Sequence record: PQ301181
Strand: one strand, 5' to 3'
Length of the DNA stretch: 64,000 nt
From: Escherichia phage EP02SG
A program made the position numbers and the translations under genes. The notes under the pieces are model-generated. The model was not told where the DNA came from and ran no database searches. It worked only from the letters and a program-made list of their open reading frames with translations. This document shows, piece after piece, positions 3,145-45,283 of this stretch (positions are counted from its first letter, which is position 1; each line of letters opens with the position of its first letter).

Positions 3145-3591
3145 TTAGTAACTCTGCAGAATGAATTTGAAATTATCAGCCAGAAGACGGTTCATTTCAG
3201 TGAGTGTTTGATATTCTGATGTATGATTGCGAGTGAATGCCAGAGCCAATTGACCTTTACCATAACCAGTAGTCAGGGGTTTCATGTTCTTAGCTGCAAC
3301 AAAAATTACATCATATTCAATATTGTTAGTGCCCATAGTACGGGCTAGTTGCGAACGGCCTTGACGAATGTGAGAAAGAATTGCATCCAACCCTTGTTTA
3401 GAACGTTGACGTCCTACAAAGAATCGTGCTGCTACTTGTCGCCAATCAGATGAACCTTTAACAAAGAAGTAAAAACCTTCACGAGAACGAAACTCTTTAG
3501 AAACTTCAGAACCGTATTCGCCATTACGAACTACTGCAACAACTTCACCACCAACTGCCAGAAGGTCTTTACGAGTTAAATATTTGGACAT
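3145..3591 (-). CDS. ndd: Ndd-like nucleoid disruption protein
   Basis: 148-aa track ORF; motifs [48 protein letters not shown] resemble remembered T4 Ndd; position between 52 and rIIB. Confidence 0.55.
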
Positions 3592-3634
3592 GCTAATTTC
3601 CTCAATTGATTAATGTTTTGTAATCCATGAGAGC

Positions 3635-3663
3635 ATTATACTCTGCTCTCAAGAGTTTGTACA
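3635..3663 (-). promoter_or_regulatory. sigma70-like early promoter upstream of ndd
   Basis: rc reads TTGTAC-N18-TATAAT with palindromic CTCTTGAGAG in the spacer; module recurs at about 47508-47545. Confidence 0.4.
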
Positions 3664-8456: not shown

Positions 8457-8657
8457 TCACAAGTTACGTTTAAAAATTTCTGCTACTTCAAGAAGTTCTT
8501 CTTTAGTAGCTGTATCGGTTTGTATTTTATATCGAATTTCTTTAAAGCGTTCTTTAAAGGACTCTGCTGACTCGATATCAAAAAATCTTTGGATAAGCCG
8601 GAATTCCCGGAGCACTGCTTTATCAAAAAGTTCCAAGTCCACGTTATATGTTCTCAT
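8457..8657 (-). CDS. hypothetical protein (rIIA.1 position)
   Basis: 66-aa track ORF immediately upstream of rIIA. Confidence 0.5.
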   Translation of the reverse strand: MRTYNVDLELFDKAVLREFRLIQRFFDIESAESFKERFKEIRYKIQTDTATKEELLEVAEIFKRNL

Positions 8658-8749: not shown

Positions 8750-9850
8750 TTACGCTGTGAAGATTTTATCCCACATCGCAACAACCGCATCTCGGTTATA
8801 CTTCTTCCATACTGCTTCAGCACGTTTAACTCGAGCTTCGTATGTGTCAGTGAATTCTAATACCGCTTTTGTGTAAAGCGCAACTACTTCTTTCTTAGGA
8901 GTAGAGGAATCAATTTCTACACGCACAGTATCCGGGTCATATTCGAATGTCGCGTGCGGATAATCCTTAAAAACTAACTGAATCACAGGGACACCTTTAG
9001 AGATGGCTTCAATAGAACTATTCTCTACCGTACCCGTGTCAGGACACGTATTGATAAGTGCTTTAGCTGTTTTAAGACGTTCCATGATTTCACTGTGTGG
9101 AGCATCAATAATAACAGGATACTTAGCCGGTGGTGCCCATTTACTAGGACAGTATCCTACACCATTTTCGCCTAGTGCTTTAATCGCTTCAAGAGCAACA
9201 TCAGTACGACGCATTTTAGTGTCATAACGTTGTGCACTAATAATCAGATCAGTCGCCGGAAGAACTTCAGGTTTCTCATTCAAACAAATAACCGGATAAT
9301 CTTCGGCTTCAAACAACGGATTTGCTCGCCAATAATCGTAATCAATTTTGTCAGTCAGACCTGAAGTCATATAACAATATTTGCGTTCAAATTCACGGAA
9401 GGCTTTAGTAGGAGCATAACTCTTACCACCATTCTTATGAATTTGAATAGTCTGGTCCCAAATTTGAACAATGCCACGAGATACCGGTTCAAATGGTGTT
9501 GCCATAAAATTCTTATGAACTTTAGAGAGACCTGCGTCTTTAATTGCCTGAACGGTTAGTTTAGTCGGTTCCATAGTAACAACAAAATCGTATTCATGGA
9601 TGCCGGCTAGTTCAACAATCTTACGAGCCATAGTATAACTCATACCTAGACTGAATTTAGTCAGATGACCAACAGGATGGTGTGTAACTTTCCAGTCACC
9701 AAACGTGTCATTATCAAAGCCGATATAATCAATATCAGCACCGATGGACACAAGATATTTCAACACATTTAAATGTACTGCTTCAAGGCCACCTTGTACG
9801 CGGTCAGGATTAAATGGGACTGCACGAGATGGGATAAACATAACTTTCAT
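8750..9850 (-). CDS. GT-B fold glycosyltransferase, putative DNA (hmC) glycosyl/arabinosyl-transferase
   Basis: 366-aa track ORF; C-terminal GTVENSSIEAISKGVPVIQL resembles the GT4/GT-B E-x7-E donor-binding motif; occupies the slot where T4 has gene 60 and mobA. Confidence 0.6.
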   Translation of the reverse strand: MKVMFIPSRAVPFNPDRVQGGLEAVHLNVLKYLVSIGADIDYIGFDNDTFGDWKVTHHPVGHLTKFSLGMSYTMARKIVELAGIHEYDFVVTMEPTKLTVQAIKDAGLSKVHKNFMATPFEPVSRGIVQIWDQTIQIHKNGGKSYAPTKAFREFERKYCYMTSGLTDKIDYDYWRANPLFEAEDYPVICLNEKPEVLPATDLIISAQRYDTKMRRTDVALEAIKALGENGVGYCPSKWAPPAKYPVIIDAPHSEIMERLKTAKALINTCPDTGTVENSSIEAISKGVPVIQLVFKDYPHATFEYDPDTVRVEIDSSTPKKEVVALYTKAVLEFTDTYEARVKRAEAVWKKYNRDAVVAMWDKIFTA

Positions 9851-9892
9851 AATTAAGCCTTATTAAAATTAAAATGAAGCTCCAGAAGGAGC

Positions 9893-11710
9893 TTAGGACA
9901 TCCATTCTTTACGAAGTTCTGAATCATCACCCAACAACATTTCAAAGAGTTCTTTCCAATTTTCAGGAAGTTTAACTACGTCGTACACAGGGTTCTGAAT
10001 CATTTCACGATATTCTGACTTTTCAAGGGAGCCTAATCCCTTGATGTATCGAATACTATGCTTAGGCAGTGTATCTTTAGCTTCTTCATACTCAGCTACA
10101 GTATAAAACCATTTTTGAGTTTTGCCAATTTGTGCAATAATTACAGGCGTTTTAACAAAGCGAATACGTCCTTGTTCAAACAATTCAGGCCAATTACTAA
10201 AGAAAGCAAGCAAAGCCGGATAAATACTTCCAAGACCGTCATGATCGGCATCGGTCATAATTGCAATATTACGATAGTTCGTATTCTCTGCCTTTTCACC
10301 AAGAATAAGACCTGTGATAGCACAGATATCAAAGAGCTCTTTGTTCTTCATCATATCAGCATATGACATACCCCAGCTATTCATCACCTTACCGCGTAAT
10401 GGGAATCCACCGTGTAGTTCACGGTCACGAACATCGATGAGATAACCAATTGCCGAATCACCTTCTGTTAAGAACAACGTCGTATCTGCATCTTTACCAC
10501 ATTGGTTAGCTTTAATATGCTTATGAACCTTAGCTTTAGTTGCCTTTTTAGCTGCTTTAGTTTCTGCAGCCTTTTCTGCCGCCAATTTACGAGCTAATGC
10601 TGCTTCGACAATAGGCATAATCAAGGCTTCGTTTTTAAGAAGTGCCTGAGCAATTTTCTTAGCATCTAATTGGATATGATTACGAATATCACCATACGTT
10701 GACGTTAAACGTTCTTTAGTCTGAGAATCAAAACGCATGTTGCTCATGTCTCTAATAAACATCAACATTGTGAGACATTCTTTAACACGAGCTTTAGTGA
10801 CTTCAATACCTTTATATTTCTTTTTAATACCGGGCAAAAGATGTTCGCAGATATCATCCATTACACATTCAACATGATGACCACCATTTTTAGTATGGAT
10901 GTTATTCACATAAGTTAAATGACGGAAGCCATCTGGCGATGTTGTGAATGCTATAGAGACTTTATCATTTTCTTGAATGATGTTATCTTCGCCAAATTGT
11001 TTAGCAAATCGTTTAAAATTACCGTCAACCTTTTTACCATTAAATGTGAACTTGATATCAGGATAAACGACTGCCAACGTTTGAAGTCGGTCTAAAGTAA
11101 TATCTAAATAAATTTGAGATAAATTATGCTCTTCAAATGAAGAGAAATCAGGAGTGAAGATTACTTTAGTGCCTTTACCTTTAGATTTCTTAGAAGACCA
11201 TGATTTGTTTTCCATTCCGTTTGAACAGTTAACAGTGATTTCATTTTCGCCATCTGACGTTATGCCTGTAAACAACGTAGAGAAGATATTAGTTAAACTA
11301 CTCCCGACGCCGTTCATACCACCGGTCTTACGTTCAGAGTCATCGCCAAAGTTACCGCCAGCCTTTGGAATAGTCCAGGCTGCTACAGGCCCAGGAATTT
11401 GTTCACCTGTTTGGTCGGTAACTAAACCTTGAGGAATACCACGTCCGTTATCTTCCACCGAAACTTGATTATTTTTAATTTGAACATCAATTTTATTTGC
11501 AAACTTAAATGATGTACGAATAGCTTCATCAACCGAGTTGTCAATAATCTCATCGATTAATTTAACCAGACCAGGAACATATTCAACTTGTTGATATTTA
11601 CCAAACAAAAAACGCTCATGTGCTTCTTTGGCCGAAGAACCAATATACATACCACTACGTTTCTTAATATGTTCTACATCTGACAATACCTTAATTTCAT
11701 TTTTAATCAT
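9893..11710 (-). CDS. 39: DNA topoisomerase II large subunit gp39 (GyrB-like), unsplit 39+60 form
   Basis: 605-aa track ORF; GHKL ATPase motifs (EIIDNSVDEA, DNGRGIP, GGMNGVGSS) and Toprim-like C-terminus in one frame; GAGGAG SD. Confidence 0.9.
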   Translation of the reverse strand: MIKNEIKVLSDVEHIKKRSGMYIGSSAKEAHERFLFGKYQQVEYVPGLVKLIDEIIDNSVDEAIRTSFKFANKIDVQIKNNQVSVEDNGRGIPQGLVTDQTGEQIPGPVAAWTIPKAGGNFGDDSERKTGGMNGVGSSLTNIFSTLFTGITSDGENEITVNCSNGMENKSWSSKKSKGKGTKVIFTPDFSSFEEHNLSQIYLDITLDRLQTLAVVYPDIKFTFNGKKVDGNFKRFAKQFGEDNIIQENDKVSIAFTTSPDGFRHLTYVNNIHTKNGGHHVECVMDDICEHLLPGIKKKYKGIEVTKARVKECLTMLMFIRDMSNMRFDSQTKERLTSTYGDIRNHIQLDAKKIAQALLKNEALIMPIVEAALARKLAAEKAAETKAAKKATKAKVHKHIKANQCGKDADTTLFLTEGDSAIGYLIDVRDRELHGGFPLRGKVMNSWGMSYADMMKNKELFDICAITGLILGEKAENTNYRNIAIMTDADHDGLGSIYPALLAFFSNWPELFEQGRIRFVKTPVIIAQIGKTQKWFYTVAEYEEAKDTLPKHSIRYIKGLGSLEKSEYREMIQNPVYDVVKLPENWKELFEMLLGDDSELRKEWMS

Positions 11711-24685: not shown

Positions 24686-24934
24686 TTATTCTTTTTCGCG
24701 AATAATAATTACTTGTTGAGGCTGCTGAGCAGATTTCTTTTCGGCAACGATAGACCAAATTAAAGTTCCAATCCAACCAATCATCGTCCAGTTAAAGAGT
24801 AAAGATACAAAGAAGATTGCTGTTGTGCTTTTTGTGCCACGAATAAGTGCGATTACCCAAGGCAACATGTAAATGATGATTGAACCAATACCTGCGATTA
24901 AAACTGCTACTGAACTAGCTACGAATAATTCCAT
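24686..24934 (-). CDS. Imm-family (superinfection immunity-like) membrane protein
   Basis: 82-aa track ORF; two TM helices and motif NWTMIGWIGTLIWS resembling the Imm GW...GW...LIW signature. Confidence 0.5.
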   Translation of the reverse strand: MELFVASSVAVLIAGIGSIIIYMLPWVIALIRGTKSTTAIFFVSLLFNWTMIGWIGTLIWSIVAEKKSAQQPQQVIIIREKE

Positions 24935-29085: not shown

Positions 29086-29634
29086 TTAACGAGCCCATTT
29101 GATAATTTCTGTAATCAAATAATTACGTTCGCTTGCATTAAATCCTATAACTTTGTTAGCACCGTCATGATTAAGTAATTGATACGTTTGGATTTTGTTA
29201 TGAATTGCAAACTCTTCAAAATATGAAATGACTGTATTAAAACCGAATGAAGACAAAGTAATAAGGTCGTCTTCAAAACTTTCAGTCATTTCGTTACGTG
29301 TTAAAATAATTGTGAACACATCATGGTTTTGGCAAAGACGAACATAATCCTGTTCATAAACATCAAGAACCGAGTCCGCATCTTGTCGAATACGTCCATA
29401 AACCCAGTTACTAATATATCCACGGTCTAACAGATAAATCTTAGTAGGGTCTAAATAATTCAACATCGTTTCGAAACAACCAACTTCATTTCGAGACTTA
29501 ACATCGAAACGTCCATCAACTGTTCGTTTAGGGAAATCAATCTTTACATATCTTTCACTAATTTCCATTATGTCATTAATGAAAGTTGTTTTACCAGCAT
29601 TATCCGGGCCATCTACTAAAATAATTTTAGCCAT
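29086..29634 (-). CDS. P-loop kinase (nucleoside/nucleotide or sugar kinase-like)
   Basis: 182-aa track ORF; Walker A GPDNAGKTT at N-terminus; start within 2 nt of upstream ORF stop. Confidence 0.55.
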   Translation of the reverse strand: MAKIILVDGPDNAGKTTFINDIMEISERYVKIDFPKRTVDGRFDVKSRNEVGCFETMLNYLDPTKIYLLDRGYISNWVYGRIRQDADSVLDVYEQDYVRLCQNHDVFTIILTRNEMTESFEDDLITLSSFGFNTVISYFEEFAIHNKIQTYQLLNHDGANKVIGFNASERNYLITEIIKWAR

Positions 29635-29635
29635 T

Positions 29636-30535
29636 TTATTCCTCGATTACGACATCTTCATATTTAGGTATATTATACGGCGAAGAAATTAAAGCATTAA
29701 AGTAGATGAACTCGCCAAGACCTGGATGGAATACTTCTTCAGGATTTTCGAAATATTGAATCTTCGGACGTCCTTTAAGAATTTGATAGTACTCAGTTTT
29801 AGTTGGATTAAAAATTCGAATCAGCGCTTCTTCAGGATACTTATTTCTGTCGAAACTATTATTTGGATCAGTTATATAAAGCGGTTGACCTAATTGAATT
29901 GCGCATTCAACCACTTGTTCAAAACGATAGCATGGGTCACTAATTCGAAATGGATGAAAAATACCATCTAGATGAATAGGAGCCAAATCACCTACAAGAC
30001 GCTGCATGACGGAAGGACGTATAACTTTCTGTGTTACGATAATCTTATTACCATCTGCACCTGCGTTAACCAGCACTTCTTTTTGACGTTCATTCAACAC
30101 AGTAGTTTGAAGTGAACGATTAACAGACAACATGTCGGTTTTTAAGAATTCATCAATATAAAAACGTGGTTTATTAGGGTCTGCAGTGATATTGAAATTG
30201 AATTCTACGTCAAAAGCGCCATCATATCCAGTGATATCTGTGATTAGAAAATCACAATCATAATAAGCAATTAATGAATCAACCACAAATTCATTTTCAG
30301 ACCAGAAATATTTACGAGTGTTATACGCGTTATCTTTATACCATAATGGAACAAACTTAAATTCCGGAAAAAGACGTTCGCATTCTTTAATATCAGATGC
30401 ATTACGTGGATATGTAATCACATCACCTGGATTAGCACGGTGCAAATGAAGTTGGAAGTTGCCATCCTTAAGGATAGCATACTGACCAGTTTCATAAGAC
30501 CGCATACTCAAGATAGGTACACGGAAAATAGCCAT
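29636..30535 (-). CDS. hypothetical protein (299 aa) at the T4 beta-gt position
   Basis: Track ORF; start overlaps gp42 stop at 30535; no recognisable resemblance to T4 beta-glucosyltransferase. Confidence 0.5.
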   Translation of the reverse strand: MAIFRVPILSMRSYETGQYAILKDGNFQLHLHRANPGDVITYPRNASDIKECERLFPEFKFVPLWYKDNAYNTRKYFWSENEFVVDSLIAYYDCDFLITDITGYDGAFDVEFNFNITADPNKPRFYIDEFLKTDMLSVNRSLQTTVLNERQKEVLVNAGADGNKIIVTQKVIRPSVMQRLVGDLAPIHLDGIFHPFRISDPCYRFEQVVECAIQLGQPLYITDPNNSFDRNKYPEEALIRIFNPTKTEYYQILKGRPKIQYFENPEEVFHPGLGEFIYFNALISSPYNIPKYEDVVIEE

Positions 30536-31251
30536 TAGTCAAGGAATCCTTTAACATAATCAAAATCACGTTCAAACACATGGGCACTTACCATGGTATG
30601 AGTATAATCACCAACTTCTACACCACATTCATTAGCGATATAATGAAGTAATTTTCCTTGGAGATAAAAATCCAACTGCATAACAACAGCACAGTTCTGA
30701 GAACGCATATGACAGTGGGTATAAAGCTTACCATCACGAATATAATAAGTCACTGAGTCAGTACATGGATATTCAAGTGTTTCGTCCGAATCAAGCAAAG
30801 CCTGATCTGAACTTTCTAGAATTTGGAACACAACTCTTCGGGAGTTAGGCTTCTCTTTAAGTTCTTTTAGAAGAGCTGGTAATTGGGCCGCAATGCGAGG
30901 ACCATAGAAAGTGTTGAAGTTCGCCGGCAAAACATCTGATTTTGGTTTAGAAATAAATTTAGCGACATTAGGATATGCCTTAAACGCTTCTTCTGCGTTG
31001 GTACCACCAGAAATCATAAACTTCCAGAAGTCTTCGGCATATTCATAAGAGATGCGGTTAATACGTGGGTCGGTCATTTTGAATGATGATGGAGTGTCAA
31101 CAACTACTGTCATAGACCCAATTTCATTACAACGTCCAATACGAGAATCAGTTACGAATTCCGGGTTTTCTAAAATTTCACGATTGACTGCTTTAAATGC
31201 GGTTTGAAAATCTGCGGCTTTAATATATTTCATTGTGTTATGTTTTCCCAT
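30535..31251 (-). CDS. 42: dCMP hydroxymethylase gp42 (thymidylate synthase family)
   Basis: 238-aa track ORF; TS-fold block PCTDSVTYYIRDGKLYTHCHMRSQNCAVVMQLDFYLQGKLLHYIANECGVEVGDYTHTMVSAHVF; length and position match gene 42 rather than td. Confidence 0.8.
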   Translation of the reverse strand: MGKHNTMKYIKAADFQTAFKAVNREILENPEFVTDSRIGRCNEIGSMTVVVDTPSSFKMTDPRINRISYEYAEDFWKFMISGGTNAEEAFKAYPNVAKFISKPKSDVLPANFNTFYGPRIAAQLPALLKELKEKPNSRRVVFQILESSDQALLDSDETLEYPCTDSVTYYIRDGKLYTHCHMRSQNCAVVMQLDFYLQGKLLHYIANECGVEVGDYTHTMVSAHVFERDFDYVKGFLD

Positions 31252-31269
31252 GTTTACCTCAATACAGTT

Positions 31270-31295
31270 ATTATATACTCAATTCATAAAGCTTA
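31270..31295 (-). promoter_or_regulatory. possible MotA-type middle promoter upstream of gene 42
   Basis: rc: TAAGCTTTA - 11 nt - TATAAT then GAGGTAAAC SD and ATG at 31251; one mismatch to MotA box. Confidence 0.35.
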
Positions 31296-31374
31296 TTTGA
31301 ATTTCTTAGCGATGTTGATATAACGTAAAGCTTCAGCATCGATATTTCCAAGAACACTATGAAGAAATGCATCA

Positions 31375-31533
31375 GCGTAGTATTCTAGTTGAACAGGTTT
31401 CTTTAATCACTTTAGCCGCTTTAGTTTCAAACAGGCCCATAAGGGCCTTTTTAAGAATTTGTTCGTTGCTGTTAATTTTAATAGTCAAAATCTCTTCGTT
31501 AAGTTGGTGGTTAAAAGTTTTTCTAGAAATCAT
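31375..31533 (-). CDS. small hypothetical protein (about 52 aa)
   Basis: Hand-translated MISRKTFNHQLNEEIL...; ATGA overlap with stop of the 386-aa ORF; coordinates approximate. Confidence 0.25.
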
Positions 31534-32690
31534 TCTGGGTACCTCAAAGCGTCATCAGAGTTAGTTATATCAATAATAGATATAGAGTTTTCTGATAACC
31601 CATTTTTAGATAACTGACGTTTATAATATCTTTCACAATATGTACACGTCGTCCCACAGATTTCATTAGCACAATCGAAATCTGGATGTTTGAACCACCT
31701 TTTTTCTAAAAAGCCGTCTAACAAAGAGGTTTCAATATTTACCGTATGTGAAAACTCAGTCTCATTTTCAAGAGTGAAAATGGTCTCTAAAGGCTTCCAC
31801 AATTCCAACAAATTACCTTCAAACTTTTCAGAAGCGTAAGCTTCAAGAACTTTTAAAATGTAGTCGGTGCTACCTGTACGTCCTGAAACTTTAAATTGAG
31901 TGATACCAATATCATTATAAAGTTTCAAATCTTGAGGACGAACAAAACGAGTTCTCAACCAGTTAAATGGATCTGTATCACGAGCTTTAATACAGTGTTG
32001 CATTGGATATCCATTTAAAGATTTGGCATCATCTACTGTAACATCGGTGCTATGGAAAATATAGCAAGAGTCACGATAGCTACAATGTGTTGTATACCCT
32101 TTACCAGCATTAGAACAGAACTCATTTACAAGAACTTCAAATATTATATTGTTCTTATTGCAAAACTCTGCTGCACGCTTCAGGAAAGAAACTGAACGGT
32201 TCTTATGAATTCCACAACAGACCTTTTTGATATTATACTGGTCATGCAAGTATTTGATTTGAGTTACAGCATCAACATGTAGAATTGTTGAAACTTCAAT
32301 CTCAATGTCTTTATTGACTTCACGAACAATTTCCATAACAACAGGGTTAGCGATAGTAATACGCCATACGCCTATTGACCAAAGATACTGAACATAATCC
32401 TGAATAGCTTTCTTCTTCCACTCAACTAGTTCTCTTTTTGAACCAGGATTTATCGTGTTGAGTGTATAGTTAAAGCAAATACCTAATTCGTTACAACGTT
32501 TAACGTAATCTTCTAACATCTTTTTGTCAACGTCAGGAAGCCTAAAATCAGGTCTGGCTGCTACAAAAGCCATTTCTCTTGTAGAGCCGTATACTTCGTT
32601 TATCAAGCTATTAGGATAAGTTTTATTGAGCTCTACGATTTTATCAAGAAGAGCTAAATCAAAATTCGTTCCGATTTTAAAAGTATTCAT
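31530..32690 (-). CDS. Cys-rich putative metalloenzyme (386 aa), possibly TIM-barrel/Fe-S (peptidase U32-like?)
   Basis: Track ORF; Cys clusters NEFCSNAGKGYTTHCSYRDSCYIF and CANEICGTTCTYCERYY; family assignment uncertain. Confidence 0.5.
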   Translation of the reverse strand: MNTFKIGTNFDLALLDKIVELNKTYPNSLINEVYGSTREMAFVAARPDFRLPDVDKKMLEDYVKRCNELGICFNYTLNTINPGSKRELVEWKKKAIQDYVQYLWSIGVWRITIANPVVMEIVREVNKDIEIEVSTILHVDAVTQIKYLHDQYNIKKVCCGIHKNRSVSFLKRAAEFCNKNNIIFEVLVNEFCSNAGKGYTTHCSYRDSCYIFHSTDVTVDDAKSLNGYPMQHCIKARDTDPFNWLRTRFVRPQDLKLYNDIGITQFKVSGRTGSTDYILKVLEAYASEKFEGNLLELWKPLETIFTLENETEFSHTVNIETSLLDGFLEKRWFKHPDFDCANEICGTTCTYCERYYKRQLSKNGLSENSISIIDITNSDDALRYPE

Positions 32691-32753
32691 TTTTTTTTTT
32701 TTTGCATCCCACGTTAATTGATGCGATGGTTTTTGCAGGTCTTACTTAAATTA

Positions 32754-33140
32754 TTATAGATTCGGTTTATATGATTTAAATGTTTCGAATTCGCCTTTAT
32801 TCATAAGAGCTTTGAATTCGTCAGGACGCATAGCTTTGTCGTCGATAATCCAATCATATACTGGTTTATGTGTTAGCAAATTATGGTACTTCAATCCAAT
32901 GTTTGCCAAGTTCTGAATCAGACTTGGGAGAATGTCAATTGCTATACGACCAGGACCGACTGACTTCATACCGCGAGCAGTGTAAAGCGTTATGGTATGC
33001 CCTGCATCATACAGGGCATTAATGGCAGACACCATTTCGACGTCTGGTTTGAAGTTCACGTAATCACGATTGTTATTCCACTCTGTTATACAATCATCGA
33101 CATCAAAACAAAGATTAAGCATGTTTTCTACACGGTGCAT
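32754..33140 (-). CDS. HAD-superfamily sugar-phosphate phosphatase (KdsC-like)
   Basis: Track ORF 32754..33155 trimmed to MHRVEN (TAATG overlap with upstream stop); HAD motif I FDVDDCIT, motif II TLYTARG, motif IV WIIDDK. Confidence 0.55.
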   Translation of the reverse strand: MHRVENMLNLCFDVDDCITEWNNNRDYVNFKPDVEMVSAINALYDAGHTITLYTARGMKSVGPGRIAIDILPSLIQNLANIGLKYHNLLTHKPVYDWIIDDKAMRPDEFKALMNKGEFETFKSYKPNL

Positions 33141-34828
33141 TAGATTCGTTCCCATTGATGAGTGATATCGCCACCGATTGGACGATAAGAAACACCAGTT
33201 TCTTTATCAGTTAGTACCCATTTACCAGGATTTTTTGTAATCAGAGTAGCCGTTACAGGTTCTGCTACATCATAACTAATAGTGCCGTCCTGAAGTACAC
33301 GGCCCATGTTACGTAATTGCTTAGTCAGAAGTTCCATACCTTTATAATATGCGGCTACCGCTTTAAGTGGATTATTCTTGAAATAACCACCTAATGCAAT
33401 CCAGATAATTGCCACTGCCAAATGATGATACTCGTTAAACGAACTCATCTTTCCATATTTGTAAACTAACGGATTGATGTTAATAGTCACATTACAAGTT
33501 GTTTCATCAATAGTAAACTGTCCCCAAGTCGGATTAGCGTTGAATTCATCATAACCTGAAACAGCGTAAAGCACTTTAGCTTCATCATACAATTTTGGCC
33601 CATAAATCTTGGTTTCACCAAAATATCCACGAGGGTCGATAAACTTGACTTCACCATTATCAGTAATCATAGTATTACTGAAGTTCGGGTCACCATGAAT
33701 AACAGAGTACTGTCCCTGAGAACGGTTATGATAACGAATAAGGTGTTCTAAAGCTTGTTTCAACATTGGCTTCAGACGCCCAATCTTAGTGTAGTTCACA
33801 TGTGTGATTTTACCAAATGAATCAATCAATGGTTGAATACTTTCACAACGATCAATAACTTTAGTATAGAATTCTTTAGTGAAATCACGACGAACAGTTT
33901 CAGGACTTACAAAATAAGTGTCTGTGCTGAATTTCAGTGCATCTAAAATTGCATCAATAATTTGTGGACGAGCAAGACTTGATTTGGATTTAATATATTC
34001 AAATGCTGGCTTACCTTTAATACGTTCCATAATAAAGTGGCCGCCAGGATGATAACTTACAATCCGTGGAACTGAATCTGATTTAACTTTCTTATACCAA
34101 TTGACTTCATCTTTTTGAAGTGCAACGCCCTGTTCTGTTAAAGCAATCTTTGTTACCGTTTCTTCGCCAATTTCAACTGCATTAAAACTACGATTAAGTT
34201 CACGAACTTCATGAGCTTTTTCAAGTTTAGGCATATCACCAAGATCGATGATATTCATAAGCTCTGATTTATTGAATGCGCTGCCGTAAAGGAATTCTAC
34301 GAAATCACGTCCTTTGCAGTATTCATGAATTTCCTCATCAGTAGAACCCATATAGAATTCCCAGTCTTTGAACTGATAAATTCCTACAACATTACCACCT
34401 GTTGAACCTACATTAGTGATATTTTCACCGTCGAAATTATATCGACATTCGTCACCCTTAACATAGATTGCGTTAACATTCCAAGACCACGAACCAAAAT
34501 CAGGAATAATATCACACCAGTTAACAATTACATTATGGCCGTCTAAATCTTTGTGCAATTTAGCAAGAGCATAAGCAGAACCATACGCTTCATCAACTGT
34601 ACGAATAGTCACATTGAACCCTTCTTGCTCACAATAAGCTCGAACAGTTTCAGCAAATTTTGAATGAACTACTACAATAATTTCATCTGCGCCAAGGTCA
34701 GAATAAATTGTATACAAATTGCTCAGAATAGTGTCTTGTTTATAGTTAACAAGCACCTTAGGAATATGATGCGTTATTGGATACAAACGAGTTGCCAGTC
34801 CAGCACCAAGAATAACAGCTTTTTTCAT
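33140..34828 (-). CDS. bifunctional sugar-1-phosphate nucleotidyltransferase / sugar kinase
   Basis: 562-aa track ORF; N-term MKKAVILGAGLATRLYPIT..PKVLV (RmlA/GalU-type NTP-transferase); C-term HGDPNFSNTMI...FIDPRG (APH/choline-kinase Brenner motif); TGAGGA SD. Confidence 0.65.
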   Translation of the reverse strand: MKKAVILGAGLATRLYPITHHIPKVLVNYKQDTILSNLYTIYSDLGADEIIVVVHSKFAETVRAYCEQEGFNVTIRTVDEAYGSAYALAKLHKDLDGHNVIVNWCDIIPDFGSWSWNVNAIYVKGDECRYNFDGENITNVGSTGGNVVGIYQFKDWEFYMGSTDEEIHEYCKGRDFVEFLYGSAFNKSELMNIIDLGDMPKLEKAHEVRELNRSFNAVEIGEETVTKIALTEQGVALQKDEVNWYKKVKSDSVPRIVSYHPGGHFIMERIKGKPAFEYIKSKSSLARPQIIDAILDALKFSTDTYFVSPETVRRDFTKEFYTKVIDRCESIQPLIDSFGKITHVNYTKIGRLKPMLKQALEHLIRYHNRSQGQYSVIHGDPNFSNTMITDNGEVKFIDPRGYFGETKIYGPKLYDEAKVLYAVSGYDEFNANPTWGQFTIDETTCNVTININPLVYKYGKMSSFNEYHHLAVAIIWIALGGYFKNNPLKAVAAYYKGMELLTKQLRNMGRVLQDGTISYDVAEPVTATLITKNPGKWVLTDKETGVSYRPIGGDITHQWERI

Positions 34829-34869
34829 GTTGTGGTCCTCATTGGTAAGTAGGAGTATTGTACACTATT

Positions 34870-35013
34870 CTAGTTAAAGCATTCATACTTTGCTTGTAGT
34901 CCAATCATAATCCATCCGATTATAAGAGTCGGAATCATTACTGGAGCCGTTAAGCTCCAGTAGATAGTCATGACAAGCATCAATAGTAAAAGTCCTATTG
35001 TTATTGCTTTCAT
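34870..35013 (-). CDS. small membrane protein (about 47 aa)
   Basis: Hand-translated MKAITIGLLLLMLVMTIYWSLTAPVMIPTLIIGWIMIGLQAKYECFN; ATGA overlap with stop of the SIS-domain gene. Confidence 0.3.
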   Translation of the reverse strand: MKAITIGLLLLMLVMTIYWSLTAPVMIPTLIIGWIMIGLQAKYECFN

Positions 35014-35645
35014 TGTTCGCCTCGTAACATGGCACCTAGTGCACCGCCGGGGTGGAACTTAAGGAAGTCATTAGAGGTAAATCCACGTTCAGACGAAAGG
35101 TTGATAGCAAACGTATCGATAAGCGCTAACAACAATGTAGTGGACATGGTCGGAGCCAGAGAATTCTCATCAACCTCTACTGCGATGCCTGTACAGAACG
35201 TATAATCAAAAAGAGCTTCGTATTCTTGTGGAATGTCCGGGTTACAATGCAACAGAATCTGTTTGACGTTCGGACGAATCATTTTAAGATGCTTAGCCAC
35301 GCCTATCATTTCTTCAGTTTTACCAGAACGACTAATATGAATCAACACATCATTAGGCGCAATGAATCCTGCATCACCGTGAGAATAATGCCCAGTGTTC
35401 AAGTACATACTCGGGATACCGAGTGAAGCAAATGTCTCAGAAGCTTTAGTTGCAATATTAGCATTCTTACCAACACCTGTAATAATTACTCGGCTTTCAT
35501 AATTACTAAGTCCTGGGCGTCGAAGAGTTTCTAGAATAGCATTATAACGAGCAGGGTTTTGACTAATTACTTTGGCCATAGCGGCCAAAGAAGAAGCTTG
35601 TTTTATGATTGCGTCAATAGCGATAGTAATAGGAGTAGTTTTCAT
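35010..35645 (-). CDS. SIS-domain sugar-phosphate isomerase, arabinose-5-phosphate isomerase (KdsD/GutQ/KpsF)-like
   Basis: 211-aa track ORF; ITGVGKNANIATKASETFASLGIPS...HGDAGFI...VLIHISRSGKTEE...LAPTMSTTLLLALIDTF...FHPGGALG match SIS/API signature; no CBS domains. Confidence 0.7.
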   Translation of the reverse strand: MKTTPITIAIDAIIKQASSLAAMAKVISQNPARYNAILETLRRPGLSNYESRVIITGVGKNANIATKASETFASLGIPSMYLNTGHYSHGDAGFIAPNDVLIHISRSGKTEEMIGVAKHLKMIRPNVKQILLHCNPDIPQEYEALFDYTFCTGIAVEVDENSLAPTMSTTLLLALIDTFAINLSSERGFTSNDFLKFHPGGALGAMLRGEQ

Positions 35646-44020: not shown

Positions 44021-45036
44021 TGTGTTGCCTCAATATAAAGTTCGTTAGAATATTTGACCAGCGCTTCTCTGTCTTCGTCTGAGATATCTGGAATCGCGTC
44101 AATATATTCTTTAATGATATCTTGAAGTGATTTAATCTCGATTTCCTGGTCGTCATCAGATTCAACACTGTTATCAACTTTAGAAACCATACGAAGAGAG
44201 TGAACTACTTTTTCAAGTTCAGATTCAAACTTAGTCAACTCTGAATCAATTTCTGATACTATAACACGTAAGGCTAGATTAGTATAATCAGAATAATTGA
44301 TTTTGCCTTTAAACGGATAAGTGATTCGTCGATGCCATGTTGTTTCATTAGGAATAAATTCCATACGTTCAACATCAGTGTCAAATACCCAGAATCCTCG
44401 AGGGTCGTTTTCATCACCTGCAGTAAGGGTCCATGGTGTCCCAATATATTTGACGTTAGCAGCTTCAGAGATTGTGTGGAAGTGGCCGGACCAGACTTGT
44501 TTATAGGTCTTTAAGAAATCAGGTTCAAGCCCATGAGACTTCATTCCTTTATAGAAATAAAAACCATTCAGTTCCCAATGCCCAACACAATAAGCGGCAG
44601 AAGAAGTCTTGATGTGCTCTAAGATTTCACCTGTATTTTCTTCGCACATCCAAGGAATTAAATCAATCAAACATCCGTCAAAATCTACTGTAGTAGGCTT
44701 ATCATATACTTTAACATTAGGATATTTAGCCAAAAGCTCAGTAGAAGCATTTGGAGTTAAAGTATTTTTAAAGTGCATATCATGGTTTCCTACAACGGTA
44801 TGTAGTGCAATACCAGCATCATCAAGCATTTGAACTATTTCACGGGCGAATTCCATAGTTTTATGTGTGATTGCTTTTCGCACATCAAAAATATCGCCAT
44901 ATTGAATCCATGTAGTAATTCCGTTTTTCTTAGAATATTCTATTGCTTGTTTAATTCCATCCAACTGAATGGATTGAACCCACTCATCATCGGCTTTAAC
45001 ACCTAAATGCCAATCACCTAAATTTAAAATTTTCAT
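44017..45036 (-). CDS. 47: recombination endonuclease subunit gp47 (Mre11/SbcD-like)
   Basis: 339-aa track ORF; phosphoesterase motifs GDWHLG, GDIFD, GNHD, GHWE, GHFH; GAGGAA SD. Confidence 0.9.
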   Translation of the reverse strand: MKILNLGDWHLGVKADDEWVQSIQLDGIKQAIEYSKKNGITTWIQYGDIFDVRKAITHKTMEFAREIVQMLDDAGIALHTVVGNHDMHFKNTLTPNASTELLAKYPNVKVYDKPTTVDFDGCLIDLIPWMCEENTGEILEHIKTSSAAYCVGHWELNGFYFYKGMKSHGLEPDFLKTYKQVWSGHFHTISEAANVKYIGTPWTLTAGDENDPRGFWVFDTDVERMEFIPNETTWHRRITYPFKGKINYSDYTNLALRVIVSEIDSELTKFESELEKVVHSLRMVSKVDNSVESDDDQEIEIKSLQDIIKEYIDAIPDISDEDREALVKYSNELYIEATQ

Positions 45037-45110: not shown

Positions 45111-45283
45111 TATCCACATAGTACACCGTACAGAGGCTCATTTGAACTTTTAAATCGAATGGGCTTGTATGTAATAGTTCCTTCGGCTTTAGCTTTATCA
45201 TAAGACTCTTTAAAACGTCTCATTCTTTCTGCTTTGCCTTTACGGATTTTATCGAAATTTTCAGAGGTCAGGTCGTTCGTCAT
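45110..45283 (-). CDS. small hypothetical basic protein (57 aa)
   Basis: Hand-translated MTNDLTSENFDKIRKGKAERMRRFKESYDKAKAEGTITYKPIRFKSSNEPLYGVLCG; GAGGTG SD; followed by strong terminator; sits where T4 has alpha-gt. Confidence 0.3.
   Translation of the reverse strand: MTNDLTSENFDKIRKGKAERMRRFKESYDKAKAEGTITYKPIRFKSSNEPLYGVLCG

Follow-up and report, generated by a model that had tools for sequence, protein, structure and literature searches.

What is the role of the GT-B glycosyltransferase gene that stands between rIIA.1 and topoisomerase gene 39 in Escherichia phage EP02SG? The question was raised by a 64,000-nucleotide stretch of sequence record PQ301181, which in its full length is called the window here. 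The gene, an open reading frame (ORF) of 366 amino acids (aa) with an ATG start, lies on the minus strand at 8750..9850 and is the orthologue of ORF003c (gp3) of phage RB69. Its product is likely to be a chain extender, which uses UDP-arabinofuranose (UDP-Araf; UDP, uridine diphosphate) to add a second, beta-1,3-linked arabinose to DNA that carries arabinosyl-5-hydroxycytosine (arabinosyl-5hoC). An earlier model, a sequence-only reading of the window, is corrected in this way: the base is 5hoC, two transferases are present, and the 366-aa one is probably the chain extender. A comparative rule is also added, by which gene copy number tracks the length of the arabinose chain. The sugars on phage DNA decide escape from restriction, CRISPR and glycosylase defences, and such assignments are therefore relevant to phage therapy and engineering.

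The acceptor base can be traced through the thymidylate synthase (ThyA) homologue encoded at 30535..31251 on the minus strand (Pfam PF00303), the equivalent of RB69 gp48. The DNA of the region is 98-99% identical to many RB69-like coliphages of the genus Mosigvirus, and the ThyA homologue is 99.2% identical to RB69 gp48 (p048) but 24.8% identical to T4 gp42; the genes on either side of it are 60-90% identical to those of T4. RB69 gp48 has been shown by experiment to make 5-hydroxy-dCMP (5hodCMP) (PMC13326640). Nuclear magnetic resonance and mass spectrometry of RB69 DNA revealed beta-D-Araf-(1->3)-alpha-D-Araf-5-hydroxy-dC plus the mono-arabinosyl form, and the DNA of Mosigvirus NP contains mono- and di-arabinosyl-5-hydroxy-dC at 1:4. 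Arabinosylated 5-hydroxycytosine is the modified base of the Mosigvirus group (PMC13326640, PMC13390438). Since the ThyA homologue is an orthologue of the verified 5hodCMP synthase and the DNA of RB69 and NP has this composition, the acceptor chemistry is 5hoC and not 5-hydroxymethylcytosine (hmC), the base that the sequence-only reading had assumed. The 5hodCMP synthase, the genes for UDP-Araf, the putative primary transferase and the 366-aa gene co-occur in the window.

The candidate for that primary transferase is a second GT-B glycosyltransferase of 299 aa (29636..30535, minus strand), which corresponds to RB69 gp46:47 in fused form, to gp79 of Acinetobacter phage DLP3 and to the single arabinosyltransferase of Shewanella phage Thanatos-1. 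Its gene follows that of the ThyA homologue directly and precedes uvsX, in the slot of T4 beta-gt. The sequence-only reading had described both T4 glucosyltransferase loci as empty. For a-gt this holds, with gene 47 ending at 45036 and a-gt.2 following at 45113-45268; the beta-gt locus, flanked by the gene 42 homologue and uvsX, is occupied by the 299-aa enzyme together with a nucleotide (thymidylate-like) kinase gene (29086..29634, minus strand). The kinase is 98.4% identical to RB69 p045 and syntenic in the clusters of Acinetobacter phages. Compared to the 366-aa protein, the 299-aa enzyme is shorter and displays no sequence similarity (BLASTP E = 2), and the PDB holds no sequence match for it. 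Searches with tblastn recovered the 299-aa enzyme from 348 phage records, among them Mosigvirus, Dhakavirus and phages of Klebsiella, Enterobacter, Serratia and Yersinia, and also of Proteus, Providencia, Edwardsiella, Pectobacterium, Shewanella and Acinetobacter. Its sequences fall into at least 138 protein clusters. The enzyme is present in every arabinosylating lineage found, universally in synteny with the 5hodCMP synthase. Judged from this distribution, the base-proximal alpha-linkage is more plausibly made by it than by the 366-aa protein, and it is proposed here as the first arabinosyltransferase. The 366-aa protein had been called the natural candidate for the transferase that uses the sugar made at 29-35.6 kb; its tie to that cluster stands, but it is not the only candidate, the GT-B enzyme inside the cluster having been overlooked.

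The 366-aa family is nested within this wider distribution. It was found by tblastn in 211 phage records, approximately 155 of which are of Mosigvirus type, with one copy that is 95-100% identical; another 55 are Acinetobacter phages, with homologues of about 42% identity at two places each. The one remaining record is a Tegunavirus with a homologue below 60% identity, and it may represent a third lineage with a secondary transferase. Three divergent tblastn queries returned the same set of records, although the Tegunavirus record is not among the matches listed for these extra queries. A scan of IMG/VR gave only contigs of the Mosigvirus and Acinetobacter-phage types, and therefore no new lineage. 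The six Yersinia-phage records in which the 299-aa enzyme was found do not belong to the set that carries the 366-aa family. Thanatos-1 has a 299-aa homologue and no homologue of the 366-aa protein; its DNA is mono-arabinosylated, and it has a single arabinosyltransferase (PMC13326640). Dhakavirus JS98 (NC_010105.1) likewise has a cluster with the 299-aa enzyme only. Its gap between rIIA.1 and gene 39 measures 588 bp and is empty, and no remnant of a 366-aa gene was found in it.

In five loci of the Acinetobacter type, two tandem paralogues of the 366-aa protein follow directly after the kinase, inside the cluster; the interval runs from DNA polymerase to helicase and contains the same gene set with the paralogues embedded. 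This supports the functional link of the 366-aa protein to the cluster that the sequence-only reading had suggested. The paralogues, which correspond to DLP3 gp77 and gp76 (DLP1_075 and DLP1_074), are 41-43% identical to the window protein over its full length and share its invariant residues, but form a tandem pair within the cluster, whereas the window gene is single and about 20 kb from the cluster. Their mutual identity is 54-57%, and they stand together on a neighbour-joining tree, apart from the window protein, which suggests that a duplication occurred within the Acinetobacter-phage lineage. DLP3 DNA is tri-arabinosylated, and in vitro the pair gp76 and gp77 extends the arabinosylated DNA of RB69 by a third arabinose, taken from UDP-Araf (PMC13326640). 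This third sugar is beta-1,5-linked, unlike the second, beta-1,3-linked one for which the window protein is proposed. It can be seen that 0, 1 and 2 copies of the 366-aa family, in Thanatos, Mosigvirus and Acinetobacter phages respectively, parallel glycan lengths of 1, 2 and 3. Since copy number tracks glycan length in this way and the 299-aa enzyme is universal, the 366-aa protein is better understood as the extender.

The window protein itself is by no means a new one, contrary to the first impression of novelty. It shares 363 of 366 residues with RB69 ORF003c/gp3 (RB69p003, NP_861693.1), which has the same length, lies likewise between rIIA.1 and gene 39 and differs only by three conservative substitutions, T56N, V230A and T327I. 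Thomas et al. (2018, PMC6024577) had already used hidden Markov models and HHpred to assign ORF003c to the GT-B enzymes and to name it as the likely arabinosyltransferase of RB69, with hmC as the proposed acceptor base. A profile search of the PDB matched the window protein to chains 9iqz/9ir0 (E = 7e-179), which were released on 2025-07-16 and are labelled in Foldseek as "phage HY126 glycosyltransferase" (9IQZ, apo) and the same "with UDP" (9IR0). The HY126 enzyme is 99% identical over the full length, with three substitutions (Y160H, G164A and S315F), and the protein has therefore already been crystallised with its nucleotide. In 2026, RB69 gp3 was proposed as "beta-arabinosyltransferase 2" by Lee et al. 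(PMC13326640), and the same assignment as a second arabinosyltransferase has been proposed for Mosigvirus NP. The gene is accordingly known, having been identified in 2018, with a structure with UDP in 2025 and a role in di-arabinosylation proposed in 2025-2026.

That the protein belongs to the GT-B class, as the sequence-only reading had called it, is confirmed by structure. It has two Rossmann-like domains with the nucleotide-sugar site in the cleft and binding by the C-terminal domain, and UDP binding is documented through the 99%-identical 9IR0, a database entry for the HY126 protein. All Foldseek matches other than the protein itself are GT-B enzymes: BshA, PimA, MshA and members of GT1. 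The best non-phage matches are PimA (2gej), BshA (3mbo) and MshA (3c4q), with E of approximately 1e-8 and 10-14% identity. At the level of sequence, the family is much more isolated. No Pfam family matches the ORF even at E<=10, and no significant match to a GT4, PF00534 or Glyco_trans_4 profile was obtained; divergent members of the family reach GT4 profiles only below threshold (PF20706, GT4-conflict, with 12.6-17.1 bits where 26 are required; PF00534, with 13.6 of the required 26.4 bits for the relative P0015). Searches of the PDB with the family profiles returned only the protein itself. PHROG 8302 ("unknown function") matches residues 1-366 with E = 1e-222, and the protein is a full-length member of this family of RB69 gp3 and DLP3 gp76-gp77. 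Only 5 clusters were found in an index of 5.8 billion proteins, and an exhaustive HMMER profile search of 1.84 billion protein clusters gave no more than 11 representatives, with no related bacterial family at E<=1e-3. All members with a visible genome are T4-like phages.

An alignment of 12 members at 35-43% identity contains 48 invariant columns, including G20, G21, R208, D210, R214, E276 and E281. The peptide at residues 272-292, TGTVENSSIEAISKGVPVIQL, had been likened to the E-x7-E signature of donor binding. This resemblance holds for the second glutamate, E281, but not for the first. The family motif is [ND]-[TS]-G-T-[VI]-E276-[NH]-x-S-x-E281-A-I, so that the canonical E-x7-E is absent and the invariant glutamates are spaced as E-x4-E. 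In an hhalign comparison (96.7% probability) with the ETAGYAVFE segment of P0015, the first glutamate pairs with G273 and the second with E281. With the bacterial GT4-type enzymes the protein shares the C-terminal "E-A-x-x-x-G-x-P-V" nucleotide-binding helix, but it lacks their first glutamate, having G273 there and the invariant E276 instead, and its proposed acceptor, unlike theirs, is DNA.

Taken together, a pathway in several steps may be proposed. Phage cytosines would be replaced by 5-hydroxycytosine, the cluster at 29-35.6 kb would supply the donor UDP-D-arabinofuranose, and the 299-aa GT-B enzyme would place the first alpha-arabinofuranose on 5-hydroxycytosine. The 366-aa protein, a soluble GT-B enzyme presumed to act after replication, would then attach another arabinofuranose, the second, to form the beta-D-Araf-(1->3)-alpha-D-Araf-5-O-dC that is dominant in Mosigvirus DNA. 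We infer that the second, beta-1,3 step belongs to the window protein and that it takes place on DNA and not on the nucleotide. Transfer by gp3 onto DNA-bound arabinose is a proposal, to which the distribution and the copy-number pattern lend support. According to PMC13216743, a Mosigvirus, Bas46, remained viable after deletion of "the arabinosyltransferase Aat" but became sensitive to a plasmid-borne defence. If the deleted gene is the counterpart of the 366-aa one, this would fit a secondary transferase that is dispensable and relevant to defence.

Several points weigh against this assignment. No activity assay of the window protein or of RB69 gp3 was found in the literature surveyed, with He 2026 and Mahler 2025 lying outside it. 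DLP3 gp76 and gp77 are each inactive alone (Lee et al., PMC13326640), so that a second step performed by a single enzyme is a prediction for every member of the family. The closest structures are retaining GT4 enzymes, yet formation of a beta product from UDP-D-Araf, which presumably has the alpha configuration, needs inversion; the altered position of the first glutamate may bear on this question of retaining or inverting. Three lineages whose DNA has been chemically characterised form the basis of the copy-number rule. Finally, the structure prediction, another of the checks first proposed, yielded the GT-B fold class, but our own AlphaFold2 model, built from a six-sequence alignment and used for fold class only, was poor (mean predicted local distance difference test, pLDDT, 58.7).

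The role originally proposed in the literature (PMC6024577) was that of the primary, base-proximal arabinosyltransferase, which transfers the first sugar onto the modified cytosine. The 366-aa protein is indeed a UDP-binding GT-B enzyme for which a crystal structure was found, as none was for the 299-aa protein, and Lee et al. detected first-step activity on 5hoC DNA for no DLP3 transferase. This role nevertheless appears unlikely. The family is absent from at least 137 records that contain the 5hodCMP synthase, the UDP-Ara cluster and the 299-aa enzyme; Thanatos-1 arabinosylates its DNA without the gene, JS98 has no trace of it, and it is the 299-aa enzyme that is universally syntenic with the synthase. 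In its first form the proposal also named hmC, where the base is 5hoC. Similarly improbable is a protein that has no autonomous step and serves as the partner of another transferase, which would be the 299-aa enzyme in Mosigvirus and the second paralogue in Acinetobacter phages, for example as a subunit for processivity or acceptor positioning. The finding that DLP3 gp76 and gp77 are inactive singly and active together (PMC13326640) would be explained in this way. However, all members, the two Acinetobacter paralogues among them, share the GG loop, R208, E276 and E281 without variation, and the invariance of donor-site residues argues that each member is catalytically competent; moreover, Mosigvirus with one copy still makes di-arabinosyl DNA.

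An acceptor other than DNA, in the host envelope, a lipid or a protein, would leave the 366-aa protein unrelated to DNA modification. Its best structural neighbours, PimA, BshA and MshA, are enzymes of lipids, small molecules and lipopolysaccharide, and one GenBank record carries the label GDP-mannose-dependent phosphatidylinositol mannosyltransferase for it. Against this, the family is confined to phages with the arabinosylation cluster, of which its genes form part in Acinetobacter phages; DNA is the substrate of homologues in vitro; and with only 11 representatives among the 1.84 billion clusters, it is without a bacterial family at the threshold given above. Such an acceptor is therefore very improbable.

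Beyond the role of chain extender, a wider reading of the 366-aa family is possible, and is offered only tentatively. The family could be a distinct, unclassified GT-B clade of inverting beta-arabinofuranosyltransferases with a GT4-like shell and a sugar on duplex DNA as acceptor, in which the first glutamate of E-x7-E gave way to an invariant one three residues further on and copy number sets glycan length. If this were true, the presence of 0, 1 or 2 copies would determine how long the glycan is and hence which host defences are escaped. Part or all of this reading may already be covered by the solved structure and the recent papers.

Compared to the glucosyltransferases of T4, the protein is similar in type and separate in sequence. 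T4 alpha-GT (GT72) and beta-GT (GT63) also have the GT-B fold and transfer sugar from a UDP donor onto modified phage cytosines after replication. Their donor is UDP-glucose and their acceptor the hydroxyl of hmC, whereas the proposed acceptor of the window protein is a sugar hydroxyl on arabinosyl-5hoC. In every pairing of the 366-aa protein with T4 a-gt and b-gt, BLASTP and tblastn gave E>0.5, and when the family profile was compared to T4 a-gt by hhalign, the probability was 0.3%. The lack of resemblance that the sequence-only reading had noticed is thus borne out, although remote HHpred similarity to the T4 enzymes has been reported with deeper profiles (Thomas et al. 2018, PMC6024577). 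Functional analogues that extend a DNA-bound sugar are the beta-alpha-glucosyltransferase of T2/T6, which forms gentiobiosyl-hmC, and the "TAGT" transferases (PMC6024577; PMC13216743). These move a hexose, where the window protein would move a pentofuranose, and they are likened to it by function only.

The ORF lies where it had first been placed, at its reported coordinates on the minus strand between rIIA.1 (66 aa, 8457-8657) and gene 39 (605 aa, 9893-11710). It is preceded by a ribosome-binding site, AAGG, approximately 8 nt upstream of the ATG, and its G+C content of 0.39-0.42 is comparable to the 0.33-0.43 of the adjoining genes (5-14 kb). Among five Mosigvirus copies, the ratio of nonsynonymous to synonymous divergence (dN/dS) is 0.01-0.045 at a synonymous divergence of 0.11-0.33, and purifying selection on the gene is strong. 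Because of this ratio and its occurrence in 211 phage records, the ORF is a real gene.

Its relation to the T4 map had been misread. The gene order in T4 is rIIA, rIIA.1, 60, 60.1, mobA, 39, and the 366-aa ORF had been thought to sit in the place of gene 60 and mobA. Gene 39 of the window is unsplit: T4 gp39 is matched by residues 1-474 of its product and T4 gp60 by residues 473-605, so that the counterpart of T4 gene 60 is the C-terminal stretch of ~133 aa and the 60.1/mobA insertion of T4 falls inside the topoisomerase gene. The equivalent of gene 60 being within gene 39, the 366-aa ORF is therefore an insertion at the junction of rIIA.1 and the 3' end of the topoisomerase gene, which measures 55 bp in T4. 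Gene 60 and mobA are not replaced by the ORF; theirs is a separate insertion inside the topoisomerase gene. A 7-bp stem-loop (9877..9894, minus strand) lies between the stop codon of gene 39 and the ribosome-binding site of the 366-aa ORF. Its stem contains G+C and is followed by a T-rich run, and it is a candidate terminator-like element or RNA hairpin.

The remaining genes of the sugar cluster, which spans 29086-35645 and is 95-99% identical to RB69 p045-p055, are all on the minus strand. A SIS-domain arabinose-5-phosphate isomerase (35010..35645; Pfam SIS) is 99% identical to RB69 gp55 (p055). The bifunctional sugar kinase and nucleoside-diphosphate-sugar pyrophosphorylase (33140..34828), equivalent to RB69 gp52:53 and HY126 AfhE, matches the Pfam family NTP_transferase and, weakly, kinase families, and is 95-99% identical to RB69 p052/p053. 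A HAD-like phosphatase (32754..33155), equivalent to RB69 gp51 and HY126 AfhF, is 99.2% identical to RB69 p051. The roles of the phosphatase and of the kinase/pyrophosphorylase in the synthesis of UDP-arabinofuranose have been described (PMC13326640). A peptidase-U32-like protein is encoded at 31530..32690. Since the clusters of Acinetobacter phages and of JS98 have no counterpart of this Mosigvirus gene, arabinosylation itself probably does not require it. The homologue of RB69 ORF049c (31296-31533, minus strand) is in two overlapping pieces in different frames, with 93.6% identity for aa 1-47 and 66% for aa 18-79, which points to a frameshift or a rearrangement with respect to RB69.

Several further observations were made on related clusters. 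In the JS98 cluster (segment L017), tblastn gave no match to the arabinose-5-phosphate isomerase, and an unrelated ORF of 166 aa (3159-3659) takes its position; the Dhakavirus sugar pathway may therefore differ. One of the two transferase paralogues in an Acinetobacter phage contig of the Acj9 type (L009, 8846-9951) lies in two frames, with the break near residue 185. The order of this cluster is also rearranged: the genes for the ThyA homologue, the 299-aa transferase and the kinase precede those for sugar activation. Shigella phage JK45 (MK962757.1; segment L015, 1794-2204) has an extra coding sequence 3' of an intact 366-aa gene, in which the first 5 codons of rIIA.1 run directly into the final ~131 codons of the transferase gene, through either a partial tandem duplication or an error of assembly. 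The imm homologue of the window (24689-24934, minus strand) lies downstream of gene 41. In T4, imm is located between genes 42 and 43, an interval that in the window holds the sugar-activation genes instead.

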